From positions 64,001 through 128,000 of IMG/VR virus record IMGVR_UViG_3300009081_000009: a stretch of 64,000 bases of DNA; one strand, given 5' to 3'. Shown here piece by piece: positions 37,848-61,071 of the stretch. Each line of letters opens with the position of its first letter. The stretch's first letter is position 1. Both the position numbers and the translations under genes were made by a program. This DNA comes from a virus. The notes below the pieces were generated by a model. That model worked only from the letters and a program-made list of their open reading frames with translations, was not told the origin of the DNA and did not search any database.

Positions 37848-37922
37848 TCCCGCTAGTTGGAATTCGAATCCAAATCACCGCATTCACAGTGCGGAGCACT
37901 AACCAATTATGCTACTACGGGG
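37848..37922 (-). tRNA. Atypical tRNA, anticodon GTG (His), bulged acceptor stem
   Basis: CCGCA-CTGTGAA-TGCGG arm, TTCGAAT loop; no G-1:C73. Confidence 0.55.
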
Positions 37923-37928
37923 ATGATA

Positions 37929-38003
37929 AGATGAAGGGGGGACTCGAACCCAACCAATGGGCAGTTTTGCAGACTGCTGCTTTACCAATTTAGCTACATC
38001 ATC
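37929..38003 (-). tRNA. tRNA-Cys(GCA)
   Basis: GCAGT-CTGCAAA-ACTGC; U73. Confidence 0.75.
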
Positions 38004-38007
38004 ATAG

Positions 38008-38107
38008 TGACGGAGGTGGGATTCGAACCAAATTCCCAAGGAGCGACCTCGGAATCACATCTTTCTGGATTAACTCCAGTTGCCTCTACCAATTGGGCTA
38101 CACCGAC
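38008..38107 (-). tRNA. tRNA-like element with 26-nt hairpin insertion in the T stem; anticodon undetermined
   Basis: D arm and T loop intact; anticodon loop AGTTAAT; two acceptor mismatches. Confidence 0.5.
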
Positions 38108-38114
38108 ATATTTA

Positions 38115-38205
38115 CGGAGATGGAAGGACTCGAACCCTCACGCCAGCATACGCCAGCCACTGTTTTCCAGACAGGATGCGTTACCAGTTACGCATTAACA
38201 TCTCC
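38115..38205 (-). tRNA. tRNA-Ser(GGA)
   Basis: CTGT-CTGGAAA-ACAG, long variable arm, G73. Confidence 0.85.
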
Positions 38206-38210
38206 ATTAG

Positions 38211-38294
38211 AAGAGAGTATGGGACTCGAACCCATAAGAGGCTTTCGCCTCGCAAGTTTAGCAAACTTGTGCCTTACCATTAGGCTAACTCTCC
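38211..38294 (-). tRNA. tRNA-Ser(GCT)
   Basis: CAAGT-TTGCTAA-ACTTG, long variable arm. Confidence 0.88.
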
Positions 38295-38298
38295 ATAG

Positions 38299-38381
38299 GG
38301 TGAAGAACGGGACTTGAACCCGCAAACCTTTCGGCACAGGAATCACAATCCTGCATGTTTACCAATTCCATCATCTTCACC
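38299..38381 (-). tRNA. tRNA-His(GTG) with long variable arm
   Basis: G-1:C73, CAGGA-TTGTGAT-TCCTG, variable arm GCCGAAAGGT. Confidence 0.85.
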
Positions 38382-38388
38382 ATGATTA

Positions 38389-38601
38389 TTAATTCGAAAT
38401 ATCAGTATTCAACACATCCATGTGATTACTAAAATATTTCTCAATCCATTCATACTTAAATTTCCAATAATTTACTTCACTTTGTAAGGCCGATAATTTG
38501 ATATTATCTGTTACAACAATTGGATCATTATCATTAGCATTGGATTTTGACATCTTTCTGCCTTCTTCTCTATATTCAGAACCCGTCTTTATTGGTTCCA
38601 T
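38389..38601 (-). CDS. Hypothetical protein inside tRNA array
   Basis: SD GGAGG. Confidence 0.65.
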   Translation of the reverse strand: MEPIKTGSEYREEGRKMSKSNANDNDPIVVTDNIKLSALQSEVNYWKFKYEWIEKYFSNHMDVLNTDISN

Positions 38602-38618
38602 TTTTCCTCCATTGATTA

Positions 38619-38692
38619 AGCTCTCGACAGGATTCGAACCTGCATATGACTGTTTTGCAGACAGTTGCCTTATCCATTTTGGCTACGAGAGC
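38619..38692 (-). tRNA. tRNA-Cys(GCA)
   Basis: ACTGT-CTGCAAA-ACAGT; U73. Confidence 0.9.
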
Positions 38693-38701
38693 ATGTTAAA
38701 G

Positions 38702-38878
38702 TTATTTATATTGTTTGTCTCTATAATGTTTCCAGTTGCGTTGGTAGTAATCACGGTGTCTATTACACCCACGATTAGCACCGCAACGTTCACATTTGAA
38801 ACTATATTGTAAAAGTCTACGATAAACATATGAGTTTGTTGTAGCTTTCATTTCCTGTTTTTCTATTGTTTTCTTCAT
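38702..38878 (-). CDS. Small basic Cys-rich protein (58 aa, not in ORF track)
   Basis: MKKTIEK...CERCGANRGCNRH...RNWKHYRDKQYK; SD AAGGA. Confidence 0.7.
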   Translation of the reverse strand: MKKTIEKQEMKATTNSYVYRRLLQYSFKCERCGANRGCNRHRDYYQRNWKHYRDKQYK

Positions 38879-38949
38879 GAATTAGATCCTTGTTAAAGTA
38901 CCTAATTCTCCATCGATGTATACATCATTAATCCTTGTTAAATTGTTAG

Positions 38950-39032
38950 CAGAAGATGAGGGACTCGAACCCCCAAGCCCTTTCGGACGACTGTTTAGTA
39001 GACAGCTACCTTACCAATTAGGTTAATCTTCC
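38950..39032 (-). tRNA. tRNA-Ser(ACT), A34
   Basis: GCTGT-CTACTAA-ACAGT, long variable arm, G73. Confidence 0.85.
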
Positions 39033-39150
39033 ATATAAAATTCGTCATCTATAACTTAACTTTATTAGTTAATGATCACTTACCAATAAAGCCTATACAT
39101 TAATGATCAGATGACTAATCAAACTTCTCGTTGTATATACTGCACAAAAA

Positions 39151-39222
39151 CAGGCTCACTAGGATTCGAACCCAGAACTTCGGATTTGGAGTCCAACCAT
39201 GTTACCGTTACACCATGAGCCT
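39151..39222 (-). tRNA. tRNA-Trp(CCA)
   Basis: TTGGA-CTCCAAA-TCCGA; A1:U72, G73. Confidence 0.9.
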
Positions 39223-39226
39223 ATAA

Positions 39227-39309
39227 AATTAATAGAAGGCTTCGAACCTTCATGCTTTCGCTCCGGGTCGTATACAACCCAGTATGTCTGCCAGTTCCAT
39301 CATATTAAT
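39227..39309 (-). tRNA. Atypical type II tRNA with enlarged anticodon loop (GTA-containing)
   Basis: All-AT acceptor stem, CTGGG-TTGTATACGA-CCCGG arm. Confidence 0.55.
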
Positions 39310-39310
39310 A

Positions 39311-39393
39311 TGCCTATGGGGAGACTTGAACTCCCACGCCATTGCTGGCAACAGCTTCTAAGGCTGCCGTGTCTACCATTCCACCACAGAGGC
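39311..39393 (-). tRNA. tRNA-Leu(TAG)
   Basis: GCAGC-CTTAGAA-GCTGT, long variable arm, A73. Confidence 0.9.
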
Positions 39394-39407
39394 TTAATTC
39401 TTACTTA

Positions 39408-39491
39408 TGCCGAGAGAGAGACTTGAACTCTCACGTCCTTACGGACACTGGCTTCTTAGACCAGCGTGTCTACCAGTTCCACCATCACGGC
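39408..39491 (-). tRNA. tRNA-Leu(AAG), A34
   Basis: CTGGT-CTAAGAA-GCCAG, long variable arm, A73. Confidence 0.88.
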
Positions 39492-39505
39492 TTATTTAAA
39501 GATTA

Positions 39506-59740: not shown

Positions 59741-59769
59741 TTGACAAATACTGTAAAATAACCTATATT
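59741..59769 (+). promoter_or_regulatory. Promoter TTGACA-17-TATATT for Asn/Arg/Glu tRNA array
   Basis: Exact match to recurrent promoter. Confidence 0.85.
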
Positions 59770-59805
59770 GTATATATAACAAAAACTTGAACTATGGAAT
59801 TTAAT

Positions 59806-59868
59806 ATGACCTTTACAACTCTTAATAATAATAATGAAAGAGAATGTCGCTCGACCGAGACGATATAG
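59806..59868 (+). CDS. Putative attenuator leader peptide MTFTTLNNNNERECRSTETI
   Basis: AAT x4-GAA-AGA-GAA; in-frame upstream ATG at 59794 also possible. Confidence 0.85.
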   Translation: MTFTTLNNNNERECRSTETI

Positions 59869-59893
59869 TAAAGGGTTATAAACCAAAAACTAT

Positions 59894-59928
59894 AAAGCCT
59901 CGGTGGAAACATCGAGGCTTTCTTGTTT
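59894..59928 (+). terminator. Attenuator terminator
   Basis: AAAGCCTCGGTG-GAAA-CATCGAGGCTTT-CTTGTTT. Confidence 0.85.
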
Positions 59929-59941
59929 ATGTTAGAAATGA

Positions 59942-60015
59942 TGGGTGGTACGCAAATAGGTAAGCGGTTTGGCTGTTAACCAAATGATGTGGGGGTTCGA
60001 GACCCTCCTACCCAG
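59942..60015 (+). tRNA. tRNA-Asn(GTT)
   Basis: TTTGG-CTGTTAA-CCAAA; G73. Confidence 0.85.
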
Positions 60016-60024
60016 TAAAAATGA

Positions 60025-60108
60025 TCTGAGATGGCGAAATTGGTAGACGCACCGCACTGTTAATGCGGAGCCGAAAGGCAACTGGGGGTTCGAAGCCCTC
60101 TCTCAGAG
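60025..60108 (+). tRNA. tRNA-Asn(GTT) with long variable arm
   Basis: CCGCA-CTGTTAA-TGCGG; variable arm GCC-GAAA-GGC; U1:A72, G73. Confidence 0.85.
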
Positions 60109-60116
60109 CTAAATGA

Positions 60117-60188
60117 TCCACTCTAGCTCAATGGTAGAGTCCGTGACTGTTAATCACGTGGTTGTTGGTTCGAGTCCAGCGAGTGGAG
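60117..60188 (+). tRNA. tRNA-Asn(GTT)
   Basis: CGTGA-CTGTTAA-TCACG; G73. Confidence 0.92.
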
Positions 60189-60196
60189 CTAAATAT

Positions 60197-60270
60197 GTCC
60201 GTATAGTCTAAATGGATAAGGCATCGCACTTCTAATGCGACTTATGGGGGTTCGACTCCCTCTATGGACA
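60197..60270 (+). tRNA. tRNA-Arg(TCT)
   Basis: TCGCA-CTTCTAA-TGCGA; A20. Confidence 0.92.
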
Positions 60271-60297
60271 CTAACTTGTTTTTAAAGGAATGATATT

Positions 60298-60348
60298 ATG
60301 ATTATTGCAACTGTATATGAACGTGAAGAGGAACGAATGCGCTATTGA
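60298..60348 (+). CDS. Putative nested attenuator leader peptide MIIATVYEREEERMRY
   Basis: SD AAAGGA; GAA-CGT-GAA-GAG-GAA run; terminator follows. Confidence 0.85.
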   Translation: MIIATVYEREEERMRY

Positions 60349-60380
60349 ACATGCGTAGTAAATAATCGTATTCGATTTTT

Positions 60381-60415
60381 ACCTCATGTTCAGAAGAACG
60401 TGAGGTTTTTTATTT
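60381..60415 (+). terminator. Attenuator terminator before Glu tRNAs
   Basis: ACCTCATGTTC-AGAA-GAACGTGAGGT-TTTTTATTT. Confidence 0.88.
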
Positions 60416-60487
60416 GTCTGATTCGACTAGTGGTTAGGTCGCGAGATTTTCAATCTTGAAACACCAGTTCAATTCTGGTATCAGATA
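60416..60487 (+). tRNA. tRNA-Glu(TTC)
   Basis: CGAGA-TTTTCAA-TCTTG. Confidence 0.88.
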
Positions 60488-60491
60488 CTAT

Positions 60492-60564
60492 GGCATCATC
60501 GTCTATTTGGTTAGGACATCTCCCTTTCAAGGAGAAAAATTGGGTTCAATCCCCAATGATGCTA
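60492..60564 (+). tRNA. tRNA-Glu(TTC)
   Basis: TCTCC-CTTTCAA-GGAGA. Confidence 0.9.
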
Positions 60565-60568
60565 TTAT

Positions 60569-60641
60569 GACTGTGTTGAGTAAAGGTTAGCTCACCTCCC
60601 TTTCAAGGAGAAAATGTCGGGTTCGAGTCCCACCACAGTTA
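60569..60641 (+). tRNA. tRNA-Glu(TTC)
   Basis: CTCC-CTTTCAA-GGAG. Confidence 0.8.
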
Positions 60642-60645
60642 CTAT

Positions 60646-60717
60646 GCTCGTATGGACTAAAGGTTAGGTCGGTTGATTCTCAATCAGCAAATAGGGGTTC
60701 AATTCCCCTTACGAGTA
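60646..60717 (+). tRNA. tRNA-Glu(CTC)
   Basis: GTTGA-TTCTCAA-TCAGC. Confidence 0.88.
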
Positions 60718-60737
60718 CTATTATAAAGGAGAACACA

Positions 60738-60989
60738 ATGTATAAGATAAGTGATGTTATTAACGCAGAAACCAAAAATTATAAAGCGATTTTTTCGTTT
60801 TATCGTTCTGGTAAGTTGTACTATACTGTGATTGATGATAACGGAAAGGCTATATGGGAATTTCCAGTGGATATCACCGATACGCATGATATTGGGGATG
60901 CTACATTTTCATCGGAATTTAAAGCAATCACACTAATGAGATATATCAGAAAGGCAATAGATTCTGAATCTCTTATTAAGTTAGCATAA
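60738..60989 (+). CDS. Hypothetical protein inside Glu tRNA block
   Basis: SD AAAGGAG. Confidence 0.75.
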   Translation: MYKISDVINAETKNYKAIFSFYRSGKLYYTVIDDNGKAIWEFPVDITDTHDIGDATFSSEFKAITLMRYIRKAIDSESLIKLA

Positions 60990-60996
60990 GTATTAT

Positions 60997-61071
60997 GGTC
61001 GCATCTTCACTAATTGGTTAGGTAGCTAGACTTTCAATCTGGAAATACGGGTTCGAGTCCCGTTGCGACTA
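60997..61071 (+). tRNA. tRNA-Glu(TTC)
   Basis: CTAGA-CTTTCAA-TCTGG. Confidence 0.85.

Follow-up and report, generated by a model that had tools for sequence, protein, structure and literature searches.

How is the transcription of a large set of phage tRNA genes adjusted when these genes are sorted into blocks that stand behind short open reading frames? The window analysed here, a stretch of 64,000 nucleotides, is part of a 165 kb contig of an uncultured, T4-like jumbo myovirus. The contig carries 57 tRNA genes, in which all 20 amino acids are represented and divided among sub-operons. Of the recorded sequencing runs containing this DNA, none is listed as RNA. ARAGORN finds 27 of these genes within the window, at the coordinates given in the initial annotation and in blocks grouped per amino acid, and all four leader ORFs that the annotation had placed upstream of these blocks (B, C, D and E) are present (Table 1). 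We consider it probable, at roughly 0.8, that the leader cassettes are ribosome-mediated (leader-peptide) transcription attenuators, by which the aminoacyl-tRNAs available to the ribosome would feed back on the sub-operon that encodes them. Judged from the sequence, each tRNA set would probably be made only upon slow decoding of its codons.

Table 1. Elements of the four leader cassettes in the window, with positions counted from its first nucleotide
Feature	Position	Strand	Description
Promoter B	40213..40243	-	Sigma-70-type, TTGACAAAT-N14-TATATTGT; exact match to shared tRNA-array promoter motif
Leader ORF B	40100..40174	-	MKSLSLHLSSLCSWLSSPEYPRYM; AAGG 9 nt 5' of ATG
Antiterminator strand B	40109..40117	-	TATCCTCGA, codons -5 to -3 counted from stop
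Intrinsic terminator B	40046..40075	-	GGCGAGGATC-GTAA-GGTTCTCGCC, then C + TTTTT; dG -17.0
tRNA array B	37848..39986	-	Leu x5, Ser x6, Trp, Cys x2, His x2, one odd tRNA (4-base anticodon call)
Internal consensus promoter, array B	39686..39713	-	TTGACTAAT...TATATT; 11 nt 5' of second tRNA-Leu(TAA); no leader or terminator
Promoter C	56736..56766	+	tRNA-array promoter motif
ORF C	56772..56858	+	MKQINTNIINSMDTVLVSSFAALPPKGV, ends ...ALPPKGV; probably leaderless; two Pro codons only
tRNA-Pro(TGG) x2	56892..57042	+	ARAGORN
Promoter D	59741..59771	+	tRNA-array promoter motif
Leader ORF D	59806..59868	+	MTFTTLNNNNERECRSTETI; in-frame ATG also upstream at 59794
Antiterminator strand D	59853..59860	+	GACCGAGA; pairs with CTCGGT of terminator 5' arm
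Intrinsic terminator D	59897..59928	+	GCCTCGGTG-GAAA-CATCGAGGC, then TTTCTTGTTT; dG -15.7
tRNA-Asn(GTT) x3 + tRNA-Arg(TCT)	59942..60271	+	ARAGORN
Leader ORF E	60298..60348	+	MIIATVYEREEERMRY; AAGGA 9 nt 5' of ATG; no promoter of its own
Candidate antiterminator strand E	60346..60353	+	TGAACATG, across stop codon; perfect complement of CATGTTCA in terminator 5' arm + loop
Second candidate antiterminator strand E	60319-60332	+	Inside control codons
Intrinsic terminator E	60382..60415	+	CCTCATGTTC-AGAA-GAACGTGAGG, then TTTTTTATTT; dG -14.6; ends at tRNA-Glu first base
tRNA-Glu x5	60416..61071	+	Four TTC, one CTC; 83-aa ORF between 4th and 5th

The contig holds eight leader cassettes, four inside the window and four outside it, in arrays A and F. 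Seven of the eight share one layout, in which a promoter or an upstream tRNA is followed by a Shine-Dalgarno sequence (or a start at +1), an ORF of 16-28 codons, a strong intrinsic terminator and the tRNA block. All eight leaders start with ATG, which in six is preceded at 7-9 nt by AGGA, AAGG or GGA; the ATG of leaders A3 and C lies at the predicted +1, 7-8 nt past the -10 box. The seven terminators (dG -11.8 to -17.0, followed by a U-tract) are situated 20-38 nt past the stop codon and before the first tRNA. Three of the four leaders in the window (B, D and E) are followed by such a hairpin, with a 5' arm that complements the leader's 3' end, as the initial annotation had described. One motif is common to four tRNA-array promoters of the contig. 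Leaders A2 and E, having no promoter of their own, are located inside tRNA transcripts, E therefore being nested in the D transcript.

Are these cassettes a product of chance, with short ORFs arising from AT-rich intergenic DNA and terminators serving as ordinary insulators before highly structured tRNA operons? The distribution of the terminators argues otherwise, as promoter-proximal terminators are confined to promoters that precede tRNA arrays. Among the 19 consensus promoters of the contig, five have a terminator within 220 nt downstream, all five before tRNA arrays, while none of the 12 promoters without tRNA genes after them has one (Fisher p = 0.002). The codons of the leaders argue likewise. 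Leader B contains 15 Ser, Leu, His, Cys and Trp codons in an unbroken run, all 15 of which the array reads, samples 11 of the 12 tRNA species of the array, and is enriched for the array's amino acids with p = 2e-4 (binomial) or 9e-4 (empirical). The control codons of leader D are AAT (four times), GAA, AGA and GAA, AGA being the codon read by the sole Arg tRNA (TCT) of the array; the enrichment has p = 1e-4 and all four tRNA species are sampled. In leader E, Glu is enriched with p = 1e-3. When all eight leaders are permuted over the arrays, the true pairing outscores every other one of the 40,320 permutations.

The same rule is replicated by the four leaders of arrays A and F, which lie outside the window and had not been seen when the rule was proposed. 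In leader F, 25 of 27 residues fall within the amino acid set of the array, with a run of 24, and 10 of the 12 tRNA species of the array are sampled. Leader A2 carries Lys and Gln codons ahead of Lys and Gln tRNAs and samples all four species, and leader A3 has six Gln codons before three Gln tRNAs. Regulatory codons are enriched in seven of the eight leaders, C being the exception. What favors chance is that leader A1, taken alone, is at most weakly significant, and that cassette C is not significant. Set against the permutation result, the in-set runs of 24 and 15 codons, the replication at unseen arrays and nine related contigs in which arrays and helices co-vary, chance is strongly disfavoured and hardly credible. 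Counting against attenuation itself are unmatched codons in the control regions, namely CGN (Arg) in leaders A1 and E and those for Gln and His in leader F. The initial claim that leader codons match the downstream array is confirmed for B, D and E and is not supported for C. In cassette C there is no terminator after the ORF and the Pro enrichment is not significant, so that a role of this cassette as an attenuator is not supported by its sequence. One natural variant has positions 56878-57040, nearly all of both tRNA-Pro genes, swapped for 810 other bases.

Orthologous leaders occur in nine related metagenomic contigs (L005, L006/L018, L012, L013, L016, L023, L080, L096 and L097), and the leader/array match, found at the two outside arrays, extends to these as well. 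A lack of such a match at other arrays, which the initial annotation had named as refuting, was therefore looked for and not observed. Across them the design of the cassette is kept while the peptide drifts; the amino acid set tracks the array, and the helices of antiterminator and terminator change in step. The F-type orthologs have five distinct antiterminator/terminator helix sequences, and the codons readable by their own array amount to 28-32/35 (25/30, 30/37). Pro codons are found in the leader solely where the array has tRNA-Pro (L006 and L016), and the Asn and Glu codons of the leader are sharply increased in L006, whose array has gained these two amino acids. The B ortholog in L097 keeps the design and conserves the antiterminator strand. 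The peptide of leader D is identical in L012, whose Asn, Glu and Arg-TCT tRNAs form a single block, and the D antiterminator strand is present there too; natural variants of leader D show the loss of 3 nt in frame and a synonymous substitution. The core YEREEERM of leader E is kept in L005 and L023, and in L005 the E antiterminator pairing is longer (GTGAACATG/CATGTTCAC).

Conservation could also mean that the short ORFs encode functional micropeptides, in which case the terminators would end these small genes and the tRNAs would be made by leaky read-through or from other promoters. Consistent with this, the A1 and D peptides are unchanged in relatives in which the adjacent proteins show about 70% identity, and array B contains an internal promoter. 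The latter bears on attenuation as well, since it would allow most of array B, namely the tRNAs that follow it, to be transcribed past attenuator B, and this counts against the model. Yet the F-type peptides, in which Met1 is the sole invariant column, retain the amino acid set of the array, and the permutation test links the composition of each peptide to its own array. Moreover, A2 and E lack promoters of their own, lying as they do inside tRNA transcripts, no Pfam match was found for any leader peptide tested, and no Rfam family for the leader regions. Given this evidence we regard micropeptides as very unlikely, and favor attenuation.

Attenuation predicts that the end of the leader and the 5' arm of the terminator can form an alternative helix, and such helices are present. 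In B the two are complementary as ATCCTCG/CGAGGAT, and in D as ACCGAG/CTCGGT. The stop-proximal segment pairs with the terminator 5' arm better than do shuffled sequences (Fisher p = 6e-5 for seven leaders, 3e-9 for 14 leaders when relatives are included); for B, the duplex has a value of -10.9 vs a shuffle mean of -7.6. The antiterminator folds, at -17 to -29 kcal/mol (B, -28.7 kcal/mol), exceed the terminators in stability. Folding with a masked ribosome footprint, which the initial annotation had suggested, gives the expected behaviour in A1, A2, D and F, where the 5' arm is paired as long as the ribosome is no further than the control codons and becomes free once it stands at the last codons; B and A3 behave similarly, only more weakly. 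In equilibrium folds of the full-length leaders, ribosome position switches A2, A3 and F only, and the terminator remains favoured in the other four (A1, B, D, E); this counts against the model, which therefore requires co-transcriptional kinetics, as in trp. The full-length folds show pairing inside the ORFs, and no separate 1:2 'protector' helix or pause site was identified. Overall, an antiterminator is predicted in the seven leaders that have a terminator, weak in A3 and ambiguous in E.

These data raise the possibility that the leaders are real codon sensors acting by another route or with opposite sign. Translation of the leader might shield the nascent transcript from Rho or RNases, or determine how the first tRNA is processed at its 5' end, or read-through might be promoted by efficient translation in place of stalling. 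Leader E provides one reason for considering this. It has two candidate strands, making its geometry ambiguous, and the one within the control codons would be covered, and hence masked, by a stalled ribosome, which counts against attenuation. The four of seven leaders that do not switch at equilibrium, and the codon-bearing ORF C that lacks a terminator, point the same way. On the other hand, the pairing strand of five leaders (A1, A2, B, D and F) and of four F-type orthologs lies downstream of the control codons, within reach of a ribosome at the stop codon, and this placement corresponds to the classical geometry in which stalling gives read-through. In addition, canonical intrinsic terminators are positioned exactly between leader and tRNAs. 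A different route or sign is thus improbable, and classical attenuation remains our preferred reading. The trp/his-type geometry initially assigned to these cassettes holds in seven of eight, for each sequence-level prediction that is testable, and is not supported in the Pro cassette.

Cassette anatomy, codon match and conserved alternative helices are read directly from the DNA; that the ribosome stalls, which way the switch turns and what triggers it physiologically are inferred, as follows. Host RNA polymerase would initiate at the strong sigma-70-type promoter or, where the leader is nested (A2 and E), arrive from the upstream tRNA block, and a ribosome would load onto the short leader ORF. 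When charged cognate tRNAs run short, the ribosome would stall in the run of control codons, leaving the segment of the last codons and stop free to pair with the emerging 5' arm of the terminator, and this antiterminator would allow the polymerase to read into the tRNA genes. When they are plentiful, the ribosome would finish the ORF and cover the segment, so that the terminator hairpin forms and transcription ends. Because the sensed molecules are also the products, the loop would be self-limiting. To name host anticodon nucleases or starvation as the trigger is speculation. A more far-reaching proposal, which we put forward only tentatively and think rather less than even in likelihood, is that the phage carries a codon-resolved tRNA homeostat. 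In seven of eight sub-operons a 'roll-call' leader, which samples nearly all the tRNA species encoded behind it, would then cause exactly those host tRNAs that are lacking to be replaced during infection, for instance after host shut-off or an anticodon-nuclease defence. If true, the arrays would act as an on-demand counter-defence, beyond a mere economy measure.

How do these cassettes relate to known systems? Control of this type had initially been thought undescribed for phage tRNA genes, and our literature searches likewise gave no published account of leader-peptide attenuation controlling tRNA genes. Xanthomonas phage XacN1 (AP018399.1), which has been cultured, is also a jumbo phage with many tRNAs, serving most amino acids between them, and encodes a related WGR-PARP protein (36% identity). 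Its tRNAs, however, are scattered among ORFs and unsorted by amino acid, and a scan of XacN1 found no leader/terminator cassette. In Anabaena sp. PCC 7120, the long tRNA operon trn has TrcR as its repressor and is switched on by translational stress, and the papers describing it speak of neither a leader peptide nor attenuation (PMC8421152, PMC10272220). Common to both systems is an accessory tRNA array that is silent until translation is impaired, in the phage as predicted here; the differences are that trn uses a protein repressor and one signal for the whole array, whereas the phage cassettes are codon-specific. With the T-box riboswitches of Gram-positive bacteria the cassettes share a choice between terminator and antiterminator, made in a 5' leader and reporting the charging state of a specific tRNA. 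T-boxes use a specifier codon and the T-box sequence to bind directly to the uncharged tRNA, without translation, and control synthetase and amino-acid genes. The phage cassettes, in contrast, contain a translatable ORF, and Rfam covariance models, applied at the gathering score to the window and the array A and F loci, matched only tRNA (RF00005) and no leader family or T-box. Given this lack of sequence homology, the cassettes resemble the Rfam leader families in their working and are not homologous members of them.

The closest likeness is to the attenuators of enterobacterial amino-acid operons, which include trpL, hisL, leuL, pheL and thrL, the multivalent ilvGMEDA and ilvBN, and that of the pheST synthetase operon. 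The phage cassettes have in common with the trpL/hisL type a promoter-proximal short ORF, a run of regulatory codons and an intrinsic terminator before the regulated genes, as well as an antiterminator that draws on the terminator's 5' arm and that a ribosome finishing the ORF would mask. They depart from it in being phage-encoded, many per genome, and in some cases nested inside a tRNA transcript. Multivalent leaders sensing two or three amino acids are known, whereas single phage leaders list 5, 8 or about 17 and sample almost all tRNA species that the operon encodes. Finally, the regulated genes are themselves tRNA genes, so that the molecule sensed would be the product itself.

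The tRNA genes of this phage are best explained as targets of classical ribosome-mediated attenuation, in which the tRNA products would close a negative feedback loop. The initial annotation had described four leader ORFs (B, C, D and E, each named after the array that it precedes); all four are present, and ARAGORN recovers the 27 tRNA genes of the window at the coordinates given. For three of the four, a strong intrinsic terminator follows the leader and its 5' arm can base-pair with the leader's 3' end, as had been noted; the Pro cassette, C, has no terminator and does not qualify as an attenuator. 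The idea had been made to depend on a leader/array match at other arrays. We read the upstream regions and internal gaps of the two arrays outside the window, A and F, and such a match is seen at every new array read. Cassette F consists of a shared promoter, TTGACAAAT-N14-TATATTGT, AAGGA, the leader MQVTTITTADTAAIIDRGTIAMGTGVHA with a run of 24 codons, each for one of the eight array F amino acids, and a terminator of -15.4 kcal/mol. Array A comprises three cassettes (A1 to A3). The promoters, ribosome-binding sites and terminators of the cassettes are of ordinary bacterial type; leaders A2 and E lack a promoter of their own and are located within tRNA transcripts.

Composition of the tRNA arrays and leaders, and positions of features in and around them
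Feature	Sequence	Positions	Strand	Details
Array A	outside window			Tyr/CAT/Tyr/Phe/Phe, then Lys, then Gln
Leader A1	outside window			MKRIYKYYRFIKTTPKGSVMR; before Tyr/CAT/Tyr/Phe/Phe
Leader A2	outside window			MQMISKQNKQKKQPSEVVV; before Lys, Gln further downstream
Leader A3	outside window			MKTNQQQQQQVMDSSARPPD; own promoter; before Gln x3
RNase T-family exonuclease gene	L093	4316-4978	-	immediately 3' of array A
Two ORFs interrupting array A	L096	12230-13470 and 13712-14730	+
Array B	window			Leu/Ser/Trp/Cys/His
Gap between tRNA-Ser(GGA) and tRNA-Cys	window	38004-38113	-	110 nt; tRNA-like, GGTTCGAATCC T-arm
tRNA-Ser(ACT) and tRNA-Leu(AAG)	window	38949-39032 and 39408-39491	-	array B; A at wobble
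tRNA-like gene	window	39227-39309	-	called with four-base anticodon (TATA)
Consensus promoter within array B	window	39686-39713	-	between both tRNA-Leu(TAA) genes
tRNA nucleotidyltransferase (CCA-adding enzyme) gene	window	50063-51316	+
Five tandem paralogous ORFs	window	56094-59073	+	~100-120 aa; between AAA ATPase gene and cassette D
Two tRNA-Pro genes, replaced in a variant	window	56877-57041
Array C	window			Pro
Array D	window			Asn/Arg-TCT
Array E	window			Glu
WGR + PARP-regulatory + PARP-catalytic protein gene	window	61196-62506	+	directly 3' of array E
Array F	outside window			Ala/Gly/Met/Thr/Ile/Arg-CGN/Val/Asp
Structured gaps of array F	contig numbering	131893-132294, 132655-132961, 134143-134269
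tmRNA gene	L006	16412-16764	+	tag VEDTAYLMAA

The window covers bases 64001-128000 of a 164,708-bp IMG/VR virus contig (completeness 39%, CheckV) and has a GC content of 31-36% outside the tRNA regions. Judging by gene content, the source is an uncultured jumbo myovirus of the T4-like superfamily, because the contig encodes a tail sheath, a family-B DNA polymerase, a tRNA nucleotidyltransferase and a T4-like large terminase 36% identical to cyanomyovirus terminases. Freshwater-sediment metagenomes of several studies contain near-identical DNA, and no run listed with it is recorded as RNA; among deposited phages none is alike at the DNA level, and near and distant BLAST searches with the array regions and leader F gave generic tRNA similarity only. 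The whole contig carries 57 tRNA genes by ARAGORN, to which Rfam adds a fourth tRNA-Lys, in blocks that are sorted by amino acid and jointly cover all 20. Array B holds two unusual tRNAs with A at the wobble position and a gene called with a four-base anticodon, and its 110-nt gap, which drew no ARAGORN or Rfam call, could represent a decayed tRNA or an aberrant one. Several gaps of 100-170 nt within array F contain structured sequence of higher GC content in which neither a tRNA nor an ORF was called; they may encode additional small RNAs or aberrant tRNAs. The CCA-adding enzyme and the RNase T-family exonuclease may have a role in tRNA maturation. The synteny between the PARP gene and the tRNA array is retained in several relatives. 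A PARP profile search of 185,579 species genomes yielded 19 confirmed relatives, whose best segments show 43-56% identity. Every one is a chromosomal gene of Armatimonadota (52-70% GC, about 60% overall) without tRNA arrays; we do not take Armatimonadota to be the host on this basis.

We find that the leaders are enriched in codons for the amino acids of their own arrays. Binomial p values for in-set residues against a six-frame background are 7e-9 (F), 3e-5 (A3), 7e-5 (A2), 1e-4 (D), 2e-4 (B), 1e-3 (E) and 0.03 (A1); the match of codon runs to downstream tRNAs claimed earlier therefore stands for B, D and E and falls short of significance for the Pro leader C. An empirical null built from random stop-free windows of equal length in the same genome, which is more conservative, places the individual leaders at about 4e-4 to 1e-2. 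In the proposed shuffle control, we took the best ATG-ORF from the 230 nt 5' of each block and scored it on all eight amino-acid sets, since this removes bias from the choice of ORF, and the true leader/array assignment was the single best of 40,320 permutations (p = 2.5e-5, the floor), whether the set was the immediate block or the entire downstream operon. The codons are readable by the array anticodons, and the leaders sample nearly all tRNA species (B 11/12, F 10/12, D 4/4, A2 4/4). Arginine is encoded by AGA in leader D, before tRNA-Arg(TCT), and by CGC in leader F, before tRNA-Arg(ACG); leaders A1 and E contain Arg CGN codons without a matching array tRNA. Leader A1 has two ATA codons, which would be explained if the one tRNA(CAT) of array A were a lysidine-type tRNA-Ile2, a possibility that we considered.

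A canonical hairpin and U-tract lie 20-38 nt 3' of the stop codon in seven cassettes. In A1, A2, B and D the best pairing partner of the terminator 5' arm is a strand 15 to 6 nt 5' of the stop codon, and in F this strand begins at the stop codon itself; relative to 1000 dinucleotide shuffles of the segment, 5'-arm complementarity has a combined p of 6e-5 over the seven leaders of the contig. When the RNA is folded only as far as the terminator loop, so that the 3' arm is still missing, the predicted antiterminators reach -17 to -29 kcal/mol, exceeding the terminators in stability, and share a conserved three-part shape of stop-proximal strand, small inner hairpin and terminator 5' arm. With a ribosome footprint of 28 nt masked, the 5' arm remains base-paired for ribosome positions up to and including the control codons and is freed at the last codons or stop. 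The masked fold that had been suggested shows this clearly in A1, A2, D and F and moderately in B and A3; in E release is absent. Leader E is marked ambiguous, because it offers two candidate antiterminator strands, one spanning the stop (TGAACATG) and one within the control codons. In full-length RNA at equilibrium only A2, A3 and F switch with ribosome position, and the model therefore depends on co-transcriptional order, as for trp. Equilibrium folding as sole criterion was rejected in favour of folds truncated before the 3' arm, because it disfavours classical attenuators too.

The arrangement is specific to tRNA arrays within the contig. A terminator lies at most 220 nt downstream in 5 of the 19 consensus promoters, all five before tRNA arrays, and in none of the 12 promoters that are not followed by tRNA genes. 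Likewise, among 55 terminator-like sites, the class that lacks a long ORF 5' and has a short ORF 5' and a gene 3' is made up of the seven tRNA cassettes.

The sequence-level features that define trp/his/leu-type attenuation, the geometry put forward by the initial annotation, are present. Host polymerase would initiate and a ribosome would translate the leader. Slow decoding at any control codon would leave the stop-proximal strand free to capture the terminator 5' arm, resulting in read-through, whereas fast decoding would bring the ribosome onto the stop-proximal strand, leading to termination. Given that leaders A2 and E are promoterless and lie inside tRNA transcripts, they may serve as second checkpoints. 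Stalling might be triggered by defence nucleases, by the decay of host tRNAs that follows shut-off, or by a mismatch in codon usage, the phage being AT-rich. The consensus promoter within array B, which has no leader or terminator, could bypass attenuator B and render the downstream tRNAs, most of the array, constitutive.

Starting from the neighbouring WGR-PARP, AAA and GNAT/DUF5661 proteins and from a degenerate codon pattern, we recovered related viral and metagenomic contigs, with 43-76% identity between the neighbouring proteins. The glycosyltransferase, radical-SAM protein and 375-aa protein adjoining array B have no relatives in the viral collection, and the B ortholog (L097) was reached via the codon pattern. 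It reads MLLSSLHLSSLCSWLSSHAHPRYA, with the pairing ATCCTCG/CGAGGAT unchanged; L097 has no tRNA-Leu(AAG) in the visible part of its array and no CTY codons in its leader, whereas leader B of the window has two. In L096, 70% identical, the A1 peptide is identical with one synonymous change and the A3 ortholog is MKNLQQQQQQVMDSSARPPF; both leaders are intact, and array A is interrupted by two ORFs that look like homing endonucleases. The D peptide is identical in L012, and its N-E-R-E run is accounted for there, because Asn, Glu and Arg-TCT tRNAs form a single block. The core of leader E, YEREEERM, is retained in L005 and L023.

Leader F exists in five versions (this contig, L005, L006/L018, L013 and L016), which have no invariant column after Met1. 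Codons readable by the leader's own array nevertheless number 23/27, 25/30, 30/37, 32/35 and 28/35. Codons for Pro are confined to the two leaders with tRNA-Pro in the array, and in L006, where the array adds Asn and Glu tRNAs, the leader contains five codons for Asn and one for Glu. Counted together, the three variable amino acids occur in 4/4 array-positive versus 3/11 array-negative cases (Fisher p about 0.03). Helix sequences vary, yet complementarity is kept in 5/5 versions. L006 also carries a tmRNA gene mid-way in its leader-controlled array. A more distant relative (L080, 43% identical) has a 36-codon leader and a terminator before 20 mixed tRNAs, with an antiterminator of -25.6 kcal/mol and a leader that samples 17/19 tRNA species. 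The cultured jumbo phage XacN1 has a related PARP too, but its tRNAs are unsorted, and our scan found no leader/terminator cassettes at its arrays or at those of the more distant PARP-bearing L034-L037 and L064; the L049 array (Lys x6) ends at the contig edge and is uninformative.

Natural variants were read from contigs, without ends or strands, of four DNA runs from other sediment samples. Variation in leader D comprises the in-frame loss of one AAT codon and a synonymous TCG>TCA change. In one variant, from a single other sediment sample, 810 unrelated bases replace the two tRNA-Pro genes, and in L012 the HNH gene comes directly, without Pro tRNAs; the Pro block thus resembles a mobile insertion. 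The tRNA-Pro and HNH genes are inserted among five tandem paralogues with a shared N-terminus (MIKLALQHYL..., MIKLALRHFL..., MFKISLYHKL..., MIKILLHNII..., MISIALKHYM...).

The model bears on the purpose of phage tRNA genes and the timing of their use. If it is true, giant phages carry a sensor of decoding speed that answers, codon by codon, with transcription of the matching tRNAs, and they monitor and repair host translation capacity in real time; textbook attenuation is then extended to a new class of targets in which what is sensed is the gene product itself. A single peptide covers 5 to about 17 amino acids, to our knowledge the most multivalent leaders, and the cassettes could serve as compact, programmable sensors for specific tRNA pools. 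A full-text literature search returned no account of tRNA genes, phage or bacterial, that are governed by a leader peptide. Functionally, the trn operon of Anabaena comes closest, and it is controlled by a protein repressor (PMC8421152, PMC10272220). At the tRNA-array loci Rfam reports tRNAs only, with no leader-family match; unlike the Rfam leader families, to none of which they are homologous, the cassettes have tRNA genes as targets, and by their defining features they would work like the trp, his, leu, thr, ilv and pheA leaders and that of the pheST operon.
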